NCBI GenBank assembly: GCA_964646765.1 | Contig: CAZYIA010000001.1 | Span: forward strand, 65,334 to 129,333 | Length of the DNA stretch: 64,000 bases | Direction: 5' to 3' | DNA from: an uncultured Candidatus Saccharibacteria bacterium | Lineage (GTDB): Bacteria > Patescibacteriota > Minisyncoccia > Phycocordibacterales > UBA9973 | Shown: in pieces, positions 6,543-24,828 of the stretch | Layout of the letters: every line of letters begins with the position of its first letter | Position numbering within the stretch: position 1 is the stretch's first letter | Notes under the pieces: generated by a model | Told to the model about the DNA's origin: nothing | Database searches by the model: none | The model's input: the letters and a program-made list of their open reading frames with translations, nothing else | Made by a program: the position numbers and the translations under genes

Positions 6543-7592
6543 ATGATGAGGGTATTATCCGCTTATACATTATCTATGGATCAAAATCAGACTTCGTCAC
6601 GACTTTCGCCAAAATTCTTCTTCCTCTCCCTTGGCGTTTTAATTACCCTTATTTGGAGCGCCTCATCGTTTCTCCTTTTGTTTTTTGAAACATTGACTCA
6701 AAAGTTTCCTGACGCTTTAAATGCCGTATACCAGTATGGATATTTTTCTGGAAACTTCGACAGTATCCGCAGTGGCATCGCTTCTCTTATTATTGTTTTT
6801 CCAGTATTTCTCGTACTCTCATATTTTTGGAATAAGGCTTCGGAAGGTGAGCTTTCTCGAGTTGATACCACTATTCGTAAATGGATGATTTACCTCGTGC
6901 TCTTCCTTGCGAGTCTTTTGATTGTTATTGACCTTGTGACATTAGTTCGTTACTTCGTTTCTGGTGAAATAACCATCCGCTTCATTCTGAAAGTGTTAGG
7001 AGTTCTTGTGACAGCGACGCTGATTGGTTTTAACTATATTAGTGAACTTCGCTTTGAAAAAATTACTCCAGAACATCGCAAACTCTACCGCGGTGCTCAT
7101 GGAGCTATTGCACTTGTTCTCGTCTTCGGTTTGATTGTTTGGAGTTTTATCGTTATTGGTTCACCAAAAACCCAGCGGGCGCTTCGTTTTGATGATCGTC
7201 GCGTTCAAGACCTTCAGTCTATTCAGTGGCAAGTAATTAGTTATTGGCAGCAAAAAGAAAAATTACCTGAAGCGCTTACGGAACTAAATAATCCAATTTC
7301 TGGCACAGTTATTCCTATAGATCCTGAAATGGATAAAGGTCTTACTTATGAGTATAAAAAAACAGGTACTCTTTCATTTGAGCTTTGTGCAACCTTTAAT
7401 CTTCCAATGCCAAAAGGTTGGATAGAAACAAGTGGTGGGGGAATTGCCTATCCAGCTCGTGATGTTGCTGTCTCGTATCCGTATCCAGGTGGAGCAAATG
7501 ATTCATGGGATCATCAAGCTGGCCGGACCTGTTTTTCTCGCACGATAGATAAGGATCTCTACCCACCATACCCAAAAGCCGTTAAAGAATAA
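6543..7592 (+). CDS. Hypothetical multi-pass membrane protein (DUF5671-like N-terminus)
   Basis: 4-5 predicted TM helices in the N-terminal 200 aa, then a soluble C-terminal domain; no catalytic motif. Confidence 0.45.
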   Translation: MMRVLSAYTLSMDQNQTSSRLSPKFFFLSLGVLITLIWSASSFLLLFFETLTQKFPDALNAVYQYGYFSGNFDSIRSGIASLIIVFPVFLVLSYFWNKASEGELSRVDTTIRKWMIYLVLFLASLLIVIDLVTLVRYFVSGEITIRFILKVLGVLVTATLIGFNYISELRFEKITPEHRKLYRGAHGAIALVLVFGLIVWSFIVIGSPKTQRALRFDDRRVQDLQSIQWQVISYWQQKEKLPEALTELNNPISGTVIPIDPEMDKGLTYEYKKTGTLSFELCATFNLPMPKGWIETSGGGIAYPARDVAVSYPYPGGANDSWDHQAGRTCFSRTIDKDLYPPYPKAVKE

Positions 7593-7593
7593 T

Positions 7594-8376
7594 ATGTTTG
7601 GGAATTTCGGAGAAAAGCCTTCCCAGGAAGTTTCGAAGTCTACAGAAGAGCAGTTAGTGGCTTTTGCTCGCACACCATTGTCTGATACAGAAGTTTTGGC
7701 TGGTCTGGAACAAGCAGGTGCTTCTTCTATAAGTCAGTTGCCGACATTGTTTCAAAAAATGATTGGCACAGAACATCTATATCGCGTGCAGGGTGTTACG
7801 TTTGGTGATGTTGTAGAACATACCATGGTCTTTACCCTCAATAACCAAAAGACAAATACATCACACGCAGAACTTGAGTTTGAGCAAGATGTTGAGAATG
7901 GTGTTTGGAATATGCGCCATCGGTATGTAGCAACAAAAGAGCAAGGTCTGAGCGGCTCTGATTTTCTGAAGAAAGCCGAAGAATATTTTGCTATTCTTAA
8001 AAAACATCAAAAAGTTGATCTCCGAAAGTTTGTCGCGCACGCTTCTCAGCCAAGTGTTATGCTGTGGCTCGAAAAAAATGGTTTCAAGGAGTCAGGAGTG
8101 AATTTCAACCACTTGTTTGATTACGAGAAAGGAACAGTAATTCCAGCCCCAGGATATTTTTTTATTGAGCTCAAGGATCCGAAGGTTCCCATCGAAAAAG
8201 ATCCCTACTTGGTTAATGGTGATTTTTTACTTGACCCAGAGTTTGCCAAACTTCGTGAAGGACTATCATTTGATCTTGCTGATAAACGTCCATATCTTGA
8301 AAGCATTGAAGTACTCAATAGTCTGATTACAAAAGGCTATGTTCCGCGACTCTCCTACGAGAAAAATGTGCTATAG
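7594..8376 (+). CDS. Hypothetical protein, possible GNAT-fold acetyltransferase-like
   Basis: Central segment RHRYVATKEQGLSG...WLEKNGFKE resembles GNAT motifs A/B (degenerate); sits immediately upstream of leuS. Confidence 0.35.
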   Translation: MFGNFGEKPSQEVSKSTEEQLVAFARTPLSDTEVLAGLEQAGASSISQLPTLFQKMIGTEHLYRVQGVTFGDVVEHTMVFTLNNQKTNTSHAELEFEQDVENGVWNMRHRYVATKEQGLSGSDFLKKAEEYFAILKKHQKVDLRKFVAHASQPSVMLWLEKNGFKESGVNFNHLFDYEKGTVIPAPGYFFIELKDPKVPIEKDPYLVNGDFLLDPEFAKLREGLSFDLADKRPYLESIEVLNSLITKGYVPRLSYEKNVL

Positions 8377-8387
8377 TTCGAAAATCT

Positions 8388-11300
8388 ATGGCACAAAAAC
8401 CGAGTGAGTATAACCACCTCGCCATTGAGAAAAAATGGCAGAAAGAGTGGGAGAAAAAGAAAGTCTATAAAACTCTAGATCCCGGGAAAAAGAAAAAGCA
8501 TTACGTGCTTGATATGTTCCCGTATCCTTCTGGAGCCGGGCTTCATGTGGGCCATCCTCGTGGCTATATTGGCAGCGATGTATACGCGCGTTTGAAGCGC
8601 ATGCAAGGTTTTAACGTCCTTCATCCAATGGGCTACGATGCTTTTGGCCTCCCAGCTGAACAATTTGCCATTGCTAACAAAATTCACCCTCGCCAAGCCG
8701 TAGAAAAAAATGTCGCGACTTTTGAACGCCAACTTGGCATTATGGGCCTCTCGTATGATTGGTCGCGAAAAGTAAACACGACCGACCCCGCCTACTACAA
8801 ATGGACGCAGTGGATTTTTCTGAAACTCTACGGTGCTTGGTACGATACTGAAAAAAACAAAGCCCGACCAATAGAAGAACTGGTAAAAATTTTTGAAAAA
8901 AAGGGGAGTGCTGGAGTGAAAGCTGTAACTAATTATAGCGGCAGTTTTTCCGCAAGTGATTGGAAATCATTCTCAAAACTTGAACAACATAAGATTCTAA
9001 TGGAGTTTCGCTTAGCCTACGAAGGCTATAGCGATGTCAATTGGTCGCCATCAATGGGTACCGTACTTGCAAACGATGAAGTCCTAGATACTCCCAATGG
9101 TCCTGTGGCGGAACGTGACGGTAAGCCAGTAGAAAAAAAGCGTATGCGCCAGTGGTTTATGCGCATAACTTCTTATGCTGAGCGATTACTTGAAGGTTTA
9201 GATGGGCTTGATTGGAGCGAACATATAAAAGAAATACAGCGAAACTGGATTGGAAAAAGCGAGGGAAGCTTGCTCACCTTTTCACTGAGTACAAAAAGTG
9301 GTACGCAGCCGAAAAAGATTTTGGTTGGTACTCGAAATGAAGCAAAGTTCAAAATGGTAAAGGCTTGTTTGCCTAAGCTCTCGGGTATTGAAATCGTTAG
9401 CCTTAATGATATTGCCGCAGTTGATGATAGCGCCCTTGTTGAAGGATCAGACTATGAAGAAAATGCTCGAATGAAAGCCGAGTTTTACTTTAAGAAAACC
9501 GGCATTCCTACTATTTCAACCGATAATATTTTTTGGTTGGAAAAGTGGAAAAAGAACGATGGTGTGATGGTGCACATGCGCAAGGAAGCTAATCCGAAGA
9601 GTGATCGAGCAACAGATGAAGAAGTTGTTGCTTTCCTTAAAAAATGGGTAAAGAGTGTTGGTGGTAGCTCACGCGCGCATTTTCGTTATGCGGTTGCTTT
9701 TGCCGACACGCATGGCGTTCGAAGCTTTACTTCAAACCAGCGTGAGTATGTACTTCAAGGAAAACAGTCAAAGAAATTTTGGCCAGGATATCCAACTGAA
9801 TCATTACTTATTGATGTTGTGACTAAAGAGTATAAGGGTAGTCAAAAAGATTCTCTTCGCTATCAAAAACTAATTAAAGATTTTGCCCGTGAACTTCCAA
9901 TGTGGTTGGGGGAACTTTCACCAGTTTCAGTATTTACCACACGTGCGGATACTCTTGCCAGTGCTTTCGCAGTAATTCTCTCTCCTGAGCATCCTCTCGT
10001 AGCGAAACTACTCCCGCTTACTGAGAATGCTTTAGAGGTGAATGCGTATATACAAGAAGCAGGGAAGAAAACCGAAGAAGATCGCACAAATACTGAAAAA
10101 GAAAAAACGGGAGTGCCGCTCAAGGGGATTACAGCAACAAATCCATTAACCAAAGAAGTACTTCCAGTATGGGTTGCTGACTTCGTGCTCGCTCAGTATG
10201 GTACTGGAGCAATTTTTGCCGACATGCACGATGAACGCGACTTTATGTTTGCCCAGAAATATGGATTGCCAATGCGACAGTCAGTTGCTCCTCATTTTAT
10301 TGACCCGAGAAATCCACCACGACCGGGACTTCCCACAGTTGCTCGCCGCACAGTTCATGTCATTCTTCGCCGACCAAGTGATGATGCGTACTTAGTACTT
10401 AATTGGAAAGGTGATGTTTGGAAGGGTCAGAACCCACATACATTTATTGTTGGAGGAATTGAAGAAGGAGAAGATACTGTTCAATCAGCACAAAGAGAAG
10501 TTGTCGAAGAAACAGGCTACCAACATATTAGATATATCTCAACGATCGGTCCAGAAATACATGCTGAATTTTGTGCCGCGCACAAAAATGAAAACCGGTA
10601 TGCTACAACCCAAGTTCTTCTATTTGAATTAGTTGATGAAACTCAAGCCTCGGTAGCACAAGAAGAATTAGATAAACACGAGTATCTATGGCTTCCAAAA
10701 GCTGAAGTTGGAAATTATTTAAATATTTCTGAAGATACATTTATTTGGAAATGGTTTATCAGCGGACAGCAATCATTCACTGATGAAGGTATCCTGATTA
10801 ATTCAGGAGAATTTAATGGACTCAGTTCAGAAATTGCTCGCCACAAAATTACAGAAGCAGTTGGGGGATCGTGGGTAACTAAATACAAAATGCGTGACGC
10901 TGTGTTTGCTCGCCAGCGGTACTGGGGTGAACCAATTCCGCTCGTTCATAACGCCGACGGTACAATTACGCCAGTTCCAGAAAAGAAATTACCACTGACG
11001 CTGCCGAACGTTAAAAGTTATGAACCAACCGGTACTGGCGAGAGCCCTCTAGCAGCAGTTTCATCTTGGGTTAAAGGGGGATACGAAACAAACACTATGC
11101 CGGGTTGGGCGGGTAGTTCATGGTACTTCCTGCGCTACATGGATCCCAAAAACAGCAAAGCTTTTGCAAGTGATAAGGCGCTGAAATACTGGCGCGATGT
11201 TGATATGTATGTTGGCGGTGCTGAGCATGCTACGGGACACCTTCTCTATGCTCGGTTCTGGCATAAAGCGCTCTATGATTTAGGATACGTACCAACAACT

Positions 11301-12035
11301 GAACCATTTAAAGCACTTCGTAACCAGGGAATGATTGGCGGCGCTGATGGAAGAAAAATGAGTAAGCGATGGGGAAACGTGGTAAATCCGGATGATGTTG
11401 TGGCAACCTACGGTGCTGATTCACTGCGTGTTTTTGAGATGTTTTTGGGACCATTCGATTCACATTTGCCATGGTCAACAGAAGGGATTATTGGTTCCCG
11501 ACGATTTATTGAAAAAGTATGGCGATTATCTCAAAAAATAATTATTGCACGCGCAACGAGTACTGATGAAAGTGCGGAAAAAGTAATCCATAAAACAGTA
11601 AAGAAAGTAACCGAAGATATTGAGAGCTTTAGTTTTAATACCGCGGTCTCATCGATGATGATTTGTGTGAATGAACTTGAACGAGCGACACAGGTTTCAT
11701 TGAAAGATTTCTCTCTTCTCCTTCGAGTGCTTGCTCCGTTTGCTCCGCATATTACTGAAGAAATCTGGCAATTAGTAGTGAAAGAAAAGGGAAGCGTACA
11801 TCATGCGTCATGGCCAACCTACGATCCTAAGAAACTGGTTGAAGCCACGGTTACCATTGTTGTTTCGATAAACGGTAAACCACGAGCAGAAATTAGTGTA
11901 GAAACTGGGGCATCTCAAGAAATAGTGGAAAGTATCGCCCAAAATGATCCACGGATACAGACTCATCTGGCAGGTAAAAAAATAACTCGGGTTATTTACG
12001 TCCCAAATAAACTGGTCAATCTAGTCATAGTCTAG
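8388..12035 (+). CDS. leuS: Leucyl-tRNA synthetase with inserted Ham1/ITPase-like and NUDIX domains
   Basis: HVGHPRGY (HIGH), editing-domain TTRADT, KMSKR, and C-terminal VIYVPNKLVNLV all align to E. coli LeuRS. Two extra in-frame blocks (aa ~301-512 and ~636-800) bring the length to 1215 aa versus ~860. Confidence 0.95.
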   Translation: MAQKPSEYNHLAIEKKWQKEWEKKKVYKTLDPGKKKKHYVLDMFPYPSGAGLHVGHPRGYIGSDVYARLKRMQGFNVLHPMGYDAFGLPAEQFAIANKIHPRQAVEKNVATFERQLGIMGLSYDWSRKVNTTDPAYYKWTQWIFLKLYGAWYDTEKNKARPIEELVKIFEKKGSAGVKAVTNYSGSFSASDWKSFSKLEQHKILMEFRLAYEGYSDVNWSPSMGTVLANDEVLDTPNGPVAERDGKPVEKKRMRQWFMRITSYAERLLEGLDGLDWSEHIKEIQRNWIGKSEGSLLTFSLSTKSGTQPKKILVGTRNEAKFKMVKACLPKLSGIEIVSLNDIAAVDDSALVEGSDYEENARMKAEFYFKKTGIPTISTDNIFWLEKWKKNDGVMVHMRKEANPKSDRATDEEVVAFLKKWVKSVGGSSRAHFRYAVAFADTHGVRSFTSNQREYVLQGKQSKKFWPGYPTESLLIDVVTKEYKGSQKDSLRYQKLIKDFARELPMWLGELSPVSVFTTRADTLASAFAVILSPEHPLVAKLLPLTENALEVNAYIQEAGKKTEEDRTNTEKEKTGVPLKGITATNPLTKEVLPVWVADFVLAQYGTGAIFADMHDERDFMFAQKYGLPMRQSVAPHFIDPRNPPRPGLPTVARRTVHVILRRPSDDAYLVLNWKGDVWKGQNPHTFIVGGIEEGEDTVQSAQREVVEETGYQHIRYISTIGPEIHAEFCAAHKNENRYATTQVLLFELVDETQASVAQEELDKHEYLWLPKAEVGNYLNISEDTFIWKWFISGQQSFTDEGILINSGEFNGLSSEIARHKITEAVGGSWVTKYKMRDAVFARQRYWGEPIPLVHNADGTITPVPEKKLPLTLPNVKSYEPTGTGESPLAAVSSWVKGGYETNTMPGWAGSSWYFLRYMDPKNSKAFASDKALKYWRDVDMYVGGAEHATGHLLYARFWHKALYDLGYVPTTEPFKALRNQGMIGGADGRKMSKRWGNVVNPDDVVATYGADSLRVFEMFLGPFDSHLPWSTEGIIGSRRFIEKVWRLSQKIIIARATSTDESAEKVIHKTVKKVTEDIESFSFNTAVSSMMICVNELERATQVSLKDFSLLLRVLAPFAPHITEEIWQLVVKEKGSVHHASWPTYDPKKLVEATVTIVVSINGKPRAEISVETGASQEIVESIAQNDPRIQTHLAGKKITRVIYVPNKLVNLVIV

Positions 12036-21380: not shown

Positions 21381-22127
21381 TTATTCCACCGTCTGAGTCT
21401 CGGGATATTTTTTTCTAAGCTCCTTAGTATAGGTAGCTTGACTCATACGACGGACTTTTTCAAATACAAGAATACTAATAATCGATACTACCCAGAGAAA
21501 GGCGAATACCTGTAAAAAGTTCTCGCCATCATGTTGCATTATAAAAAAGTTAAAAATGCTATGCAACCCAATCGCAAGCCCAAATCCGATTACCAGAGAG
21601 CCAAATCGCACCGATCTGCTTTGATAAAAAGATAGTCCCATCATAAGACCAATAAATCCAGTACAAACGCTATGGAGAAGAGTTGAACCTAGGAAGCGTA
21701 AGTTGGTGGTTAAAAGCGCCACAGTTGTTGCTTGACCAGCAAATGGTTTAATGAGGAAGAACGTATTTTCAAGAGCGGCAAAACCAAGTGCTGCCGTCAT
21801 GAGATAGATAGGAAAGTCGATTGGTTCACTAATCTGGGACGTTCTAAAAGCAATCAATGCGCAGGCTAAGTACTTCATCACTTCTTCTGATGCTGCCCAT
21901 ACAACAATAAGTGTTGTGTTATCAGAAAATTGATGGAGGAAAAATTGTTGGATAGGTAATACGGCAACAACCGCAAGCATGCCGGCTACGAAAGTAAGAG
22001 CAACTAAACCAAGCGGTTCGGGCTTGATATCATCCTCACTCATCCAGTAGTGTAGCCAAATAAACGAAGGGATGGTTCCCGCGATGAGAGCAAAGATAAC
22101 AGCGACAGGATTGTCGAAACTACTCAT
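21381..22127 (-). CDS. PrsW-family intramembrane glutamic protease
   Basis: Conserved motifs EEVMKY (EExxK), FAALEN, HSVCTG and HSIFNF spread across 7-8 TM helices. Confidence 0.7.
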   Translation of the reverse strand: MSSFDNPVAVIFALIAGTIPSFIWLHYWMSEDDIKPEPLGLVALTFVAGMLAVVAVLPIQQFFLHQFSDNTTLIVVWAASEEVMKYLACALIAFRTSQISEPIDFPIYLMTAALGFAALENTFFLIKPFAGQATTVALLTTNLRFLGSTLLHSVCTGFIGLMMGLSFYQSRSVRFGSLVIGFGLAIGLHSIFNFFIMQHDGENFLQVFAFLWVVSIISILVFEKVRRMSQATYTKELRKKYPETQTVE

Positions 22128-24828
22128 GAATTGGCCACGGAGAAACCATTAGTAAACGACCGTTTGATTCCGGTAACGTTTCCCAGATTGCTTCAGTTAC
22201 GAACGGCATCAGAGGGTGAAGCATTGTTGTAAGTTCTTTTAAAACAGTACGGAGCAGTTTCTTGCGAGACATTTTTTCAGCATCTGTTCCTTCAGCCAAA
22301 ATTTTCTTACTCTCTTCCAAAACTTCGTCGGCAAAACGATGCCAAGCAAATTGGTAGAGTTTTTCTGATACTAAGTGGAACTTATACGTTTCGTATTCAT
22401 TGGTAATTTCCTGTTTGAGAGTATTCCACTCGGTTGCAATAGCAGCATCCGCATCGGAGTATGCGACCGCCATATCTACACCGTCAGTATAGGTAAGAAC
22501 GAAGCGGGTGATATTCCAGAGTTTGTTGCAGAAATTTTTATAGCCTTTAATTTTATCGCGTGAAATCTTGATGTCAGTTCCTGGGGCAACACCAAATATA
22601 AGCGCCATTCGTCCAGCATCCGCACCGAATTCATTCGCAATATCGAGCGGATCCATCGCAGCATTGCCGAGCGATTTAGACATTTTCTCCCCCTTTTCTG
22701 TGCGGACAATGCCCGAGAGGTAGACGGTGTGGAAGGGAATAGTTTCAAGAGCATAGCCAGTCATGAGAATCATGCGGGCGACCCAGAAGAAGAGAATGTC
22801 CGGACCACACTGAAGCATGTCTGTTGGATGATAGATTTCGAGATCTTTGGTTTTGTCTGGCCAGCCAAGCGTGGAGAAGGTCCATGAACCAGATGAGAAC
22901 CAGGTGTCGAGAGTGTCAGGATCTTGCGTAAAGTTGTCTTCTGGAGGATTGATGGTCACAGTAAATTCATAGGTGGTGGCATTGCCCATACGCCATTTAT
23001 TTCTGAAAGCGATTAAGTCCGTCTCTCCATCCAATACTGCTTTCATCACAGAGGAAAAAGATTGGTGTCCAATAACAACAATGTCTCCGTCAGATTGATC
23101 ACTATAAATCAATTCCCATGCTTGTTTAGCCCGAGCTAAGAGTTCTTCTTTCGTTTCTCCAGTACCTGTTGTGAGAGTCGCAACTAGAAGGGGAATTTCA
23201 TTTCTAGCTTTACCTTCGAGATTTCCCGCACCTACCTCCCGGAATAGAGGAGAAATTTCAAACGGGGTTCCGATAGTTTTCTCTATAATTTCAGCCGTTT
23301 CTACCGCTCTTGGCAAATCAGAAGAGAAAATTTTTCCTATTTTTCTACCTACAAGTAGTTCAGCGGCTTTACGCGCTTGCTCCTTACCTTTTTCGGTAAG
23401 AGGATAATCACCCAATCCCGCATAAATATCAGACTGGTTTGCCGTTGATTCTCCGTGTCGTACGAAAATTATGTTTCGAGATTTCTGAAGATGAGGTTTA
23501 TTTTCCGTGTCATACCAAACAGGCACACGATGGCCGTACCAGATTTGTCGTGAAATGCACCAGTCGCGAAGGTTATCAATCCAATGGAAGTATGTCTTTT
23601 CAAAATATTCGGGAATAATTCGAATTGCGCTGCTTGCTACCGATTCGCGCATAAGATCTTTCAGCGTCTTGCCGCGGCCAGGGATTTCTTTGTTTACAGC
23701 TACGAACCACTGAAGTTTTGGCAACGGCTCAACAATGCCGCCAGTTCGTTCAGCAGTAGAAACATTTTGGTTGACCTCTTCTTCTTTTTCGAGCAGTCCT
23801 TCCTCACGAAGCCAGGAAACAATAGCTTCCCGAGCCTCGGTAGTTTTCTTGCCCAGTATCCGTTCGTCACCCACAATCATTTTGGCGTACTCATTAATAA
23901 CCTGAGGGCGAGGCAAGTTGTGCCGATCCGCAATTTCCCAGTCGGTCATTGAGTGGGCCGGAGTAACGCCGAGGGCGCCGGTACCGAAGTCTTTTTCTAC
24001 CGATTCGTCGGCAATAATTTTGATATGAATAGGTACGCCGCAGAAAACCGCGTCATATTCCTTACCGACAAATTCTTGATAGCGTGAGTCTTCTGGGTGG
24101 ACAGCTACTGCAGTGTCGCCAACTTTGGTTTCTGGTCGGGTCGTGGAAATAGAAATAGGGAAGTCCTTAGAATACTTAAAAGTGTAGAGCTTCGCTTTGC
24201 GCTCTTCGTATACGATTTCGTCATCGGCAATCGTGGTTTGGCCTTTTGGATCCCAGTTTACAATGCGATTGCCACGGTAAATGAGGCCGTCATCGTACAT
24301 CCGCTTAAACATGGTGTTTACCGCGCGGTTTCGCGTTGCATCAAGGGTAAACGCTTCACGGCTCCAGTCACACGAAGCACCCATTACTCTCGTTTGGCTA
24401 GCGATAGTGCGGCGACTTTCGGAAACAAAAGCATCAATGCGACGTAGTAATTCTTCGCGGCCAAGATCATGGCGGCTTTTGCCTTCTTTTTTATAAATTT
24501 CTTTTTCAACTTTGCTTTGTGTTGCGATAGCAGCATGATCAGTTCCGGGAAGCCAAAGTGTGCGGTGGCCGCGCATTCGCTTGAAACGAATCGCGATATC
24601 TTGAATAGTAAGACCGAGAGCATGACCCATATGGAGCACTCCCGTGGCATTCGGCGGCGGCATCATGATAGTATACGGTTTAGCATCCGGCTTCGTATAG
24701 CCTGCCTCGATACATTTTTCCGGATTAAAAAAACCGCTCTTTTCCCAGATGTCGTAAATTTCTTTTTCGTGCTCGTTGGAGTTGTAGGCTTTTAGCAGCT
24801 TTTCAGGCACGTGAGCAGGATTTTCCAT
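22120..24828 (-). CDS. valS: Valyl-tRNA synthetase with an inserted histidine-phosphatase (PGAM-like) domain; C-terminal coiled-coil absent
   Basis: PPPNATGVLHMGHAL (ValRS HIGH region), editing TTRPETKVGDTA, DWCISRQIWYGH, DTWFSS, and KMSKSLGN. About 200 extra residues (aa ~445-632) hold RHGE...SSDLPRAVETA...VIGHQ. Confidence 0.95.
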   Translation of the reverse strand: MENPAHVPEKLLKAYNSNEHEKEIYDIWEKSGFFNPEKCIEAGYTKPDAKPYTIMMPPPNATGVLHMGHALGLTIQDIAIRFKRMRGHRTLWLPGTDHAAIATQSKVEKEIYKKEGKSRHDLGREELLRRIDAFVSESRRTIASQTRVMGASCDWSREAFTLDATRNRAVNTMFKRMYDDGLIYRGNRIVNWDPKGQTTIADDEIVYEERKAKLYTFKYSKDFPISISTTRPETKVGDTAVAVHPEDSRYQEFVGKEYDAVFCGVPIHIKIIADESVEKDFGTGALGVTPAHSMTDWEIADRHNLPRPQVINEYAKMIVGDERILGKKTTEAREAIVSWLREEGLLEKEEEVNQNVSTAERTGGIVEPLPKLQWFVAVNKEIPGRGKTLKDLMRESVASSAIRIIPEYFEKTYFHWIDNLRDWCISRQIWYGHRVPVWYDTENKPHLQKSRNIIFVRHGESTANQSDIYAGLGDYPLTEKGKEQARKAAELLVGRKIGKIFSSDLPRAVETAEIIEKTIGTPFEISPLFREVGAGNLEGKARNEIPLLVATLTTGTGETKEELLARAKQAWELIYSDQSDGDIVVIGHQSFSSVMKAVLDGETDLIAFRNKWRMGNATTYEFTVTINPPEDNFTQDPDTLDTWFSSGSWTFSTLGWPDKTKDLEIYHPTDMLQCGPDILFFWVARMILMTGYALETIPFHTVYLSGIVRTEKGEKMSKSLGNAAMDPLDIANEFGADAGRMALIFGVAPGTDIKISRDKIKGYKNFCNKLWNITRFVLTYTDGVDMAVAYSDADAAIATEWNTLKQEITNEYETYKFHLVSEKLYQFAWHRFADEVLEESKKILAEGTDAEKMSRKKLLRTVLKELTTMLHPLMPFVTEAIWETLPESNGRLLMVSPWPIHE

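Follow-up and report, generated by a model that had tools for sequence, protein, structure and literature searches.

A Nudix hydrolase domain inserted into the leucyl-tRNA synthetase of Paceibacteria-type Patescibacteria

The stretch of DNA considered here, hereafter the window, comprises 64 kb of contig CAZYIA010000001.1 from an uncultured Candidatus Saccharibacteria bacterium. It encodes a leucyl-tRNA synthetase (LeuRS) of 1215 residues which contains, within its CP1 editing domain as placed by alignment, a Nudix hydrolase domain. The leuS open reading frame (ORF; Table 1) is of bacterial type, scoring 878 bits against TIGR00396, the bacterial LeuRS equivalog model (cut-off 548.4), and carrying both HIGH-type and KMSKS-type signatures. 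In the protein, Pfam recognises the class I catalytic domain, the editing domain PF13603 (148.8 bits, with the threonine-rich motif and catalytic aspartate expected of CP1), the anticodon-binding domain, and PF00293, the NUDIX family, and the sequence can be aligned to the LeuRS structures of Thermus thermophilus and Escherichia coli. No second leuS paralog is present in the window, nor did any genome give two leuS loci among the 80 loci kept from a GTDB-wide survey with a single genome for each species, in which 354 relatives had been found. The window LeuRS is therefore the housekeeping enzyme and, presumably, the cell's only LeuRS.

Table 1. Features of the leuS locus. Positions are those of the window; residue numbers (aa) are those of the window LeuRS.
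Feature	Position	Strand	Basis
leuS, 1215-aa bacterial-type LeuRS, host of three lineage-specific inserts	8388..12035	+	Unbroken ORF, TIGR00396, structure alignments
HVGH (HIGH) synthetic-site signature, aa 53-56	8544..8555	+	Unchanged in homologs with (113) and without (7) the Nudix insert
57-aa lineage-specific insert 1, aa 149-205	8832..9002	+	Falls between residues 144 and 145 of T. thermophilus LeuRS in the alignment
Ham1/ITPase-like domain, aa 304-512, hot-spot A, immediately ahead of the first conserved segment of CP1	9297..9923	+	PF01725, AlphaFold2 (AF2), Foldseek
CP1 N-terminal three-quarters, aa 513-633, with TTRADT and GTG...HDERD	9924..10286	+	PF13603 positions 22-143 of 185; T. 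thermophilus 243-362
Nudix domain insert, aa 634-794, CP1 surface loop (hot-spot B)	10287..10769	+	Pfam, structure alignments, homolog alignment, Foldseek
Nudix box GGIEEGEDTVQSAQREVVEETGY (G689...Y711), predicted catalytic metal-binding helix	10452..10520	+	Strict pattern match and conservation
X-loop region (putative) and clade motif: F728/C729, then K733-x-x-N736-R737	10569..10598	+	Conservation in 113 homologs; X-loop from PMC5389931
CP1 C-terminal quarter, aa 795-840, ...GILINSGEFNGL... up to RDAVFARQRYWG	10770..10907	+	Joins the N-terminal part of CP1 (CP1a) after in silico deletion of Nudix; inside isolated CP1 crystal constructs
KMSKR (KMSKS) loop, aa 990-994	11355..11369	+	Motif conserved in homologs

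The match to PF00293 covers aa 653-774 and amounts to 39.4 bits in the whole protein (gathering score 21.1); the segment delimited in a preliminary description of this DNA, when scanned alone, reached 44.1 bits (E = 2.6e-11). The strict Nudix-box pattern G-x5-E-x7-R-E-U-x-E-E-x-G-U is matched exactly, once in all six frames of the window (10452-10520) and 0 times in 200 shuffled windows, and the insert has the alpha/beta/alpha sandwich of the Nudix fold. The textbook Nudix domain reported in the preliminary description is thus confirmed, far beyond chance, as a complete domain within LeuRS. That description had also allowed for an assembly artefact. An artefact or chimera was ruled out by the continuous reading frame, by the identical LeuRS protein having been recorded from two sources (on a contig of up to 426 kb), and by more than 100 independent homologs. 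An intein or mobile element was likewise rejected, the insert being an ordinary enzyme domain with conserved junctions, for which repeats are not needed as an explanation. The codon usage of the Nudix segment is distinctive, its G+C content at third codon positions (GC3) being 0.230, where the value for the 44 window ORFs of at least 200 aa is 0.348 +/- 0.032, and lying within the lowest 0.3% of 160-codon windows; the GC3 of the 57-aa insert 1 is likewise low (0.263). Codon selection may be weaker on a passenger domain that evolves fast; recombination is another possible cause.

The position of the domain was read from alignments. Residues 513-633 of the window protein align with T. thermophilus LeuRS 243-362, and residues 795-983 with 375-577. 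When aa 637-794 are deleted in silico, the remainder aligns unbroken to T. thermophilus 243-439, as well as to E. coli LeuRS, and follows the crystal structures of isolated CP1 domains well past the junction (3pz5, 21-190 of 201; 4k47, 17-173 of 192; 2ajg, 26-186 of 196). The PF13603 model is itself split by the Nudix domain (Table 1). Because the Nudix-deleted sequence aligns as one stretch with LeuRS and with isolated CP1 domains, the Nudix domain is placed inside CP1, approximately three-quarters of the way through, and not between CP1 and the catalytic core as had been described. The loop which it replaces measures ~12 aa in T. thermophilus and, by alignment, ~18-20 aa in E. coli LeuRS, for which ~45 residues had been quoted.

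The architecture was surveyed in a homolog set consisting of the 120 best LeuRS matches in a 5.8-billion-protein collection. An insert of 145-173 aa occupies exactly the same site in 112 of these 120 nearest LeuRS, while 7-8 have only 8-33 residues there. The preliminary description had suggested looking for the insert in orthologous LeuRS of sister genomes; it is there, at the same site, and the implied singular curiosity of one gene is instead lineage-wide. Most insert-bearing LeuRS are ~1000 aa long with Nudix alone, and their named sources are Patescibacteria, Paceibacterota or Parcubacteria. Among the 80 species-representative loci, the insert is present in ~48, drawn from Paceibacterota, Nomura-, Zambryski-, Taylor-, Vogel-, Kaiser- and Giovannonibacteria, and Minisyncoccia, and is absent from ~32. 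Nudix-in-LeuRS is, then, a lineage-wide architecture of Paceibacteria-type Patescibacteria. Elsewhere in the host protein, the leucine-specific domain is absent before KMSKR (residues 983-991 span T. thermophilus 577-638), its site being 9 aa long in 120/120 homologs, and the ZN1 region (aa 206-250) is without cysteines where T. thermophilus has a cysteine-rich zinc site. The 57-aa insert 1 is found in most LeuRS homologs and gave no Pfam match when scanned.

Conservation within the Nudix domain is sharply partitioned. Across the 113 insert-bearing homologs, the catalytic positions are retained almost without exception: G689 in 113, G690 in 111, E695 in 108, R703 in 110, E704 in 113, E707 in 112, E708 in 113, and G710 in 113. 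A further set of positions is specific to the clade, namely R653 (105), K733 (112), N736 (108), R737 (104), E760 (102), and W768 (109). Median pairwise identity is nevertheless 0.32 in the Nudix domain versus 0.66 in the LeuRS core, and in the closest pair (P0001/P0002) 0.42 versus 0.82; the Nudix domain evolves approximately twice as fast as the synthetase core. The retention of Nudix-box residues in 108-113 of the 113 homologs, set against a median domain identity of 32%, argues for selection on catalysis. An active site frozen within a fast-changing surface would show the pattern expected of an autonomous, still catalytic passenger domain.

The synthetic motifs HVGH and KMSK(R) and the editing motifs TTRxDT and GTG...HDxRD are unchanged in LeuRS with and without the insert (113 versus 7 homologs). 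In a quick neighbour-joining tree of the LeuRS core (750 columns, all inserts masked, no support values), insert-less LeuRS are nested at at least 4 separate places among insert-bearing lineages, and this nesting suggests an ancestral gain followed by repeated loss. The Nudix domain is dispensable for LeuRS, and neither replaces nor rescues editing; its INDEPENDENCE from editing is indicated by its location in a CP1 loop, by the motifs which remain unchanged with or without it, by the nested insert-less enzymes, and by its absence from ~32 of the 80 species-representative loci. Compensation by Nudix for a degenerate editing site was considered and ruled out, the editing motifs being intact. 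A complementary distribution, in which a stand-alone copy would lie beside an insert-less leuS, was also rejected: none was found within 3 kb in the ~32 loci.

The relatives of the domain were sought by searching 1.84 billion cluster representatives exhaustively with phmmer, the 165-aa segment serving as query (E <= 1e-3). The clade is narrow, since merely 324 proteins were returned. The best 149 of these 324 matches were classified, with selected ones scanned against Pfam, and the majority of those classified are LeuRS or LeuRS fragments. Within LeuRS the clade is found at two sites and in 1-3 copies per protein: the pre-CP1 site may hold one or two extra copies (P0122 and P0123 have three Nudix domains in total), and tandem copies at the CP1 site occur in P0043, P0088 and P0134. 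The clade also occurs in prolyl-tRNA synthetase (ProRS), in five clusters only (P0189, P0271-P0274). P0189 is an archaeal-type class II ProRS in which Nudix lies between the anticodon-binding and C-terminal domains. The nearest insert-free relatives of these ProRS are named Nanoarchaeota or Woesearchaeota and, to judge from those names, the hosts are probably DPANN archaea. In a rough tree of the domain, the ProRS inserts and the stand-alone genes adjacent to proS form one clade nested in LeuRS-type diversity, the hot-spot A copies are scattered beside CP1-site copies, and several stand-alone genes lie near the midpoint root.

Genuine stand-alone members of the clade are ~160-185 aa long. P0137 is separated by 2 nt from the Nudix-bearing leuS that follows it. 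P0145 precedes a Nudix-bearing proS by two genes, and P0171 comes 16 nt after proS. P0184 follows argS at a distance of 13 nt and precedes an ileS with a His_Phos_1 insert of its own; genes for dUTPase, thymidylate kinase and a further Nudix protein are found near P0184. The remaining contexts are those of P0136, which lies 4 nt past fpg/mutM with RuvA/PolA in the neighbourhood, P0167, beside another Nudix, and P0164, adjacent to a PRK-family kinase. Of the seven informative stand-alone contexts, four thus adjoin genes for aminoacyl-tRNA synthetases (aaRS), for which a crude binomial estimate gives P between 1e-3 and 1e-2. That so narrow a clade recurs at two sites in LeuRS, in ProRS, and beside aaRS genes argues for a general link to aaRS.

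Some further observations were made at these loci. The ProRS-Nudix genes at L085 (2906-4837) and L086 (2762-4693) have a phosphoribosyl pyrophosphate synthetase gene as a conserved neighbour. The isoleucyl-tRNA synthetase (IleRS) with inserted His_Phos_1 is encoded at L089 (5094-8498, +), and also at L090 and L091, downstream of argS and the stand-alone Nudix; a zeta-toxin-like kinase accompanies the dUTPase, thymidylate kinase and other Nudix genes upstream. P0168 (1169 aa) begins with Ser_hydrolase and Abhydrolase_1 domains; CP1, Nudix, and the LeuRS C-terminal half come next, and no HIGH-containing N-terminal half was detected in it. Either a split LeuRS, such as that of Aquifex, or an artefact of gene calling may lie behind this arrangement. 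In the window, a DUF5671 membrane protein is encoded two genes upstream of leuS (in the region of 6543-7592 and 7594-8376), and the same family also directly precedes the pair of stand-alone Nudix and leuS at the P0137 locus. The 260-aa ORF between the DUF5671 gene and leuS matched no Pfam family.

A second nucleotide-pyrophosphatase fold resides in the same polypeptide. The Ham1-like segment (209 aa), scanned alone, matched PF01725 with 40.5 bits (cut-off 22.5), its AF2 model has a pLDDT of 91.3, and its top 32 Foldseek matches are all ITPase/RdgB/Ham1, with TM scores up to 0.72. The Ham1-like insert already seen in the preliminary description, and with it the pairing of two different such folds in one protein, is upheld by these results; against RdgB equivalog models the segment scored 32.6 bits where 234 are called for. 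The Ham1-like domain is patchy over the LeuRS tree, and its site, hot-spot A, accommodates a variety of guests: Ham1 (the window protein and P0013), Abhydrolase_1 (P0016), ASCH (P0088), GNAT (P0118), and Nudix (P0122 and others). Occupancy is very patchy even in close relatives, for example P0009 versus P0046. In P0014 a HAD domain occupies a third LeuRS site, closer to the C-terminus. Nor is LeuRS the only host in the window, as the other class Ia synthetase, the valyl-tRNA synthetase (ValRS) encoded at 22120..24828 (-), recognised by NF004349 with 860.6 bits, has an inserted His_Phos_1 domain (PF00300, 114.5 bits, aa 453-622, ~22963-23472) in place of ~28 residues of T. thermophilus ValRS (418-445). 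Given the varied guests of hot-spot A and the His_Phos_1 domain of ValRS in the same window, Nudix-in-LeuRS is one instance of a wider lineage habit of embedding phosphohydrolases in aaRS. The window ValRS is seemingly also without the C-terminal coiled-coil. Elsewhere in the window (28576-30093, -), an EPSP-synthase-family, MurA-like protein is fused to an N-terminal, DNA-binding HTH_3 domain, an unusual combination.

What the Nudix domain may hydrolyse, and why it is tethered, we infer from its neighbours in profile and structure space and from its conserved residues. When the clade profile was compared with solved structures, the best match was lupin diadenosine tetraphosphate (Ap4A) hydrolase (1f3y, E = 3e-10), followed by Enterococcus faecalis 2azw. 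Foldseek ordered its matches as 2azw, Aquifex Ap4A hydrolase (3i7u, rank 2), RppH (including an Ap4A complex), NudI, and human Ap4A hydrolase; 2azw, NudI, ADP-ribose pyrophosphatases and decapping enzymes score similarly to 1f3y and 3i7u. The neighbours are predominantly enzymes acting on nucleoside tri- to hexaphosphates, and not on nucleoside diphosphate sugars. According to a review of the Nudix clan, substrate specificity is set in the X-loop, ~17 residues after the box (PMC5389931), where a conserved tyrosine has been linked to hydrolases of diadenosine polyphosphates (ApnA; Dunn et al. 1999, as summarised in PMC5389931). At positions +17 and +18 after the box, phenylalanine or tyrosine is found at residue 728 in 109 of 113 homologs and at residue 729 in 100 of 113, their structural equivalence to the X-loop tyrosine being assumed; as a clue to ApnA, this aromatic pair is suggestive only. 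The conserved basic residues R653, K733 and R737 may be counted toward the substrate class as well, and the residues of the X-loop and of K733-N736-R737 are candidate contacts to the polyphosphate or base of a substrate.

The explanation which we consider probable, if by no means secure, is that of an autonomous nucleoside-polyphosphate hydrolase, predicted to be active, which rides on LeuRS and takes no part in editing. A self-contained and catalytically competent Nudix pyrophosphohydrolase would have been spliced into a CP1 surface loop of a fully functional LeuRS, as an ancient accessory module of Paceibacteria-type Patescibacteria. The module would fold on its own, keep its Mg2+-binding Nudix helix, and hydrolyse a nucleoside polyphosphate while LeuRS continues to charge and proofread tRNA-Leu. 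Its leading candidate substrates would be Ap4A-type dinucleoside polyphosphates, followed by aberrant (d)NTPs such as 8-oxo-GTP, and its role may be described as aaRS-tethered nucleotide house-cleaning rather than any step of leucine editing. The house-cleaning theme is suggested by the Ham1 co-insert, by the fpg and dUTPase/thymidylate kinase contexts of stand-alone relatives, and by the His_Phos_1, HAD and alpha/beta-hydrolase guests of aaRS.

Within this explanation, we favour an aaRS-tethered ApnA hydrolase over any other single mechanism, though only tentatively. Aminoacyl-tRNA synthetases use the aminoacyl-adenylate to produce dinucleotides of the Ap4A type, and Nudix enzymes break these down; this is the sole established biochemical link between the two families. 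The insert has the canonical box and fold in common with known Nudix ApnA hydrolases (lupin 1f3y, Aquifex aq_158 3i7u, human NUDT2, T. thermophilus Ndx1), which provide its best profile match and are among its top structural neighbours, and an aromatic residue ~17 aa after its box may correspond to the one in their X-loop. It differs from them in being only ~20% identical and in the frequent replacement of the tyrosine by phenylalanine in the clade. The closest functional parallel may be the LysRS-Ap4A-NUDT2 axis, in which an aaRS likewise makes Ap4A and a Nudix enzyme destroys it; there, however, the hydrolase is a separate protein, whereas here it is covalently inserted.

Several observations weigh against the explanation as a whole or against its ApnA component. 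Firstly, none of the NCBI equivalog models (RppH, NudB, NudI, NudC, NudE, MutT1, and others) comes near its cut-off, and the Nudix insert therefore belongs to no characterised subfamily. Secondly, the best structural neighbour, 2azw, is uncharacterised, and matches to characterised Nudix enzymes are all 14-23% identical. Thirdly, the window protein itself has Phe728/Cys729, and not tyrosine, at the presumed X-loop positions. Fourthly, ArgRS forms no adenylate without tRNA, and its occurrence as neighbour of a stand-alone Nudix therefore weakens a pure Ap4A story. The neighbourhood statistic, moreover, rests on seven loci which are partly non-independent, as the two proS cases may share ancestry, and stand-alone copies beside leuS or proS could reflect a history of gene fission or duplication and not function. 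Lastly, both the core tree and the domain tree are quick neighbour-joining trees without support values.

The rival closest to the preferred explanation, which we rate somewhat unlikely but not far behind the tethered ApnA hydrolase, is generic MutT-like sanitation of oxidised or aberrant (d)NTPs in the nucleotide pool, biochemically unrelated to aminoacylation, with aaRS serving simply as abundant and constitutive carriers in streamlined genomes. The Ham1/ITPase domain of the same polypeptide is a classical house-cleaning enzyme, and the insert and the MutT-type enzymes would thus have this logic in common; P0136 starts 4 nt after fpg/mutM, with which it appears operonic; P0184 has its nucleotide-metabolism neighbours; and the unrelated phosphatases His_Phos_1 and HAD are also found inside aaRS. 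NudI and Mycobacterium tuberculosis MutT1/Rv2985 are the next-ranking matches of the insert, no substrate being on record for 2azw. Sanitation alone would, however, leave unexplained why a narrow clade is recurrently fused or adjacent to aaRS of both classes, an association which is no feature of MutT. The fpg context is a single locus, and MutT-type equivalog models, including that for 8-oxo-(d)GTPases, stay far below their cut-offs (NF052459 MutT1, 13.5 bits versus 475).

An RNA-end enzyme in the manner of RppH or NudC, which would be positioned beside the acceptor end, act on the bound tRNA and strip 5'-triphosphates or Np4/NAD caps from it or from other RNA, we regard as improbable. The Nudix fold is common to these enzymes and the insert, RppH and NudC both act on polyphosphate-linked nucleotides, and the top Foldseek matches include many RppH structures, RNA and Ap4A complexes among them, with the decapping effector AvrM14 also among the neighbours. 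RppH models head the weak NCBIfam matches, CP1 receives the 3' end of tRNA, which is adjacent to the 5' end, and the clade occurs in aaRS of both classes. RppH equivalogs nevertheless reach only 20-24 bits against cut-offs of 116-118 (NF001938, 24.3 versus 116; NF001936, 23.2 versus 118), and some stand-alone copies are remote from any aaRS (P0136, P0167). The insertion site in ProRS, where Nudix separates the anticodon-binding domain from the C-terminal one, is furthermore not obviously near the acceptor end, and nothing indicates that the tRNAs of these organisms keep 5'-triphosphates.

The preliminary description had offered Ap4A hydrolysis, general nucleotide sanitation, and hydrolysis of aminoacyl-adenylates coupled to editing as roles for the domain. 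The first two survive as live candidates, while the third is unsupported, given that the clade is found in class II ProRS, which has no CP1, and in stand-alone genes, that the insert appears to have been lost repeatedly, and that the editing motifs are unchanged. Such coupled hydrolysis, by which the Nudix site would supplement CP1, whether of the non-cognate adenylates Nva-, Ile- or Met-AMP, of toxic Leu-AMP analogues, or of adenylate-mimic antibiotics, is very unlikely indeed. The Nudix domain is physically within the editing domain, and Hint enzymes of the HIT family, another superfamily, set a precedent in hydrolysing adenylates made by aaRS. An aminoacyl-adenylate, however, has one phosphate in a mixed anhydride and is no nucleoside diphosphate linked to another moiety, which puts it outside normal Nudix chemistry (PMC5389931), and the occurrence of multiple tandem copies speaks against the idea as well. 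Finally, a non-catalytic structural or ligand-sensing domain is just as improbable: Nudix folds with non-enzymatic roles, such as NrtR-type regulators or the Nudix-like domains of ribosomal proteins, do exist (PMC5389931), but Nudix domains without catalysis typically lose their catalytic residues, and here each of those in the box is kept in 108-113 of the 113 homologs despite ~68% divergence elsewhere in the domain.

A bolder extension of the favoured explanation, namely a tethered nucleoside-polyphosphate hydrolase, concerns its recurrence. Bacteria of the Candidate Phyla Radiation (in LeuRS) and, apparently, DPANN archaea (in ProRS), both ultra-small and symbiotic, may have independently wired one Nudix clade into aaRS so that a by-product of adenylate formation is cleared on the enzyme itself, be it ApnA or the Np4-capped or 5'-triphosphate ends of tRNA or other RNA. 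We think this unlikely on present evidence. If true, it would amount to an unrecognised system of synthetase plus by-product hydrolase, with the CP1 hinge and loop of LeuRS as evolvable docking sites for nucleotide-repair domains.

The domain combination has not escaped automatic annotation entirely. One JGI product name among these proteins reads 'leucyl-tRNA synthetase/ASC-1-like (ASCH) protein/ADP-ribose pyrophosphatase YjhB (NUDIX family)', and PF00293 had already been flagged automatically. Full-text literature searches found no publication describing a LeuRS-Nudix or aaRS-Nudix fusion. Inserted enzymatic domains in the aaRS of Patescibacteria are not entirely unknown, as NF040702, an NCBI-curated architecture of IleRS with GNAT ('IleRS, N-acetyltransferase domain-containing'), attests; it is also among the weak matches of the window LeuRS and ValRS. 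The insert further resembles the accessory domains of other aaRS (CP1 itself, YbaK/INS in ProRS, and eukaryotic add-ons) in entering through a surface loop and leaving the core undisturbed. Known insertions are, however, editing, tRNA-binding or protein-interaction modules, whereas the guests here are small-molecule phosphohydrolases (Nudix, Ham1, His_Phos_1, HAD) which occupy defined hot-spots, in 1-3 copies, with rapid evolutionary turnover. To our knowledge, no add-on described in aaRS hydrolyses free nucleotides; those known edit, bind tRNA, or bind proteins. What is unusual in the present case is a guest which is a free-nucleotide hydrolase, lineage-wide in its distribution, and represented by the same clade in a class II aaRS apparently from another domain of life.

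The two or three permissive insertion sites revealed in LeuRS may be of use in protein engineering, and the Nudix insert provides a conspicuous synapomorphy-with-losses for Paceibacteria-type Patescibacteria. Its parallel fusion to ProRS, apparently in DPANN archaea, hints at a shared selective pressure on, or gene flow between, two ultra-small lineages. An essential translation enzyme which permanently carries at least one nucleotide pyrophosphatase, here predicted to be active, would be a new class of aaRS architecture. If the substrate is of the Ap4A type, this would be the first case in which the producer of an alarmone, the aaRS, and its destroyer, the Nudix domain, are joined in one polypeptide, and would offer a direct handle on the long debate as to whether ApnA made by aaRS is a signal or a product of damage.

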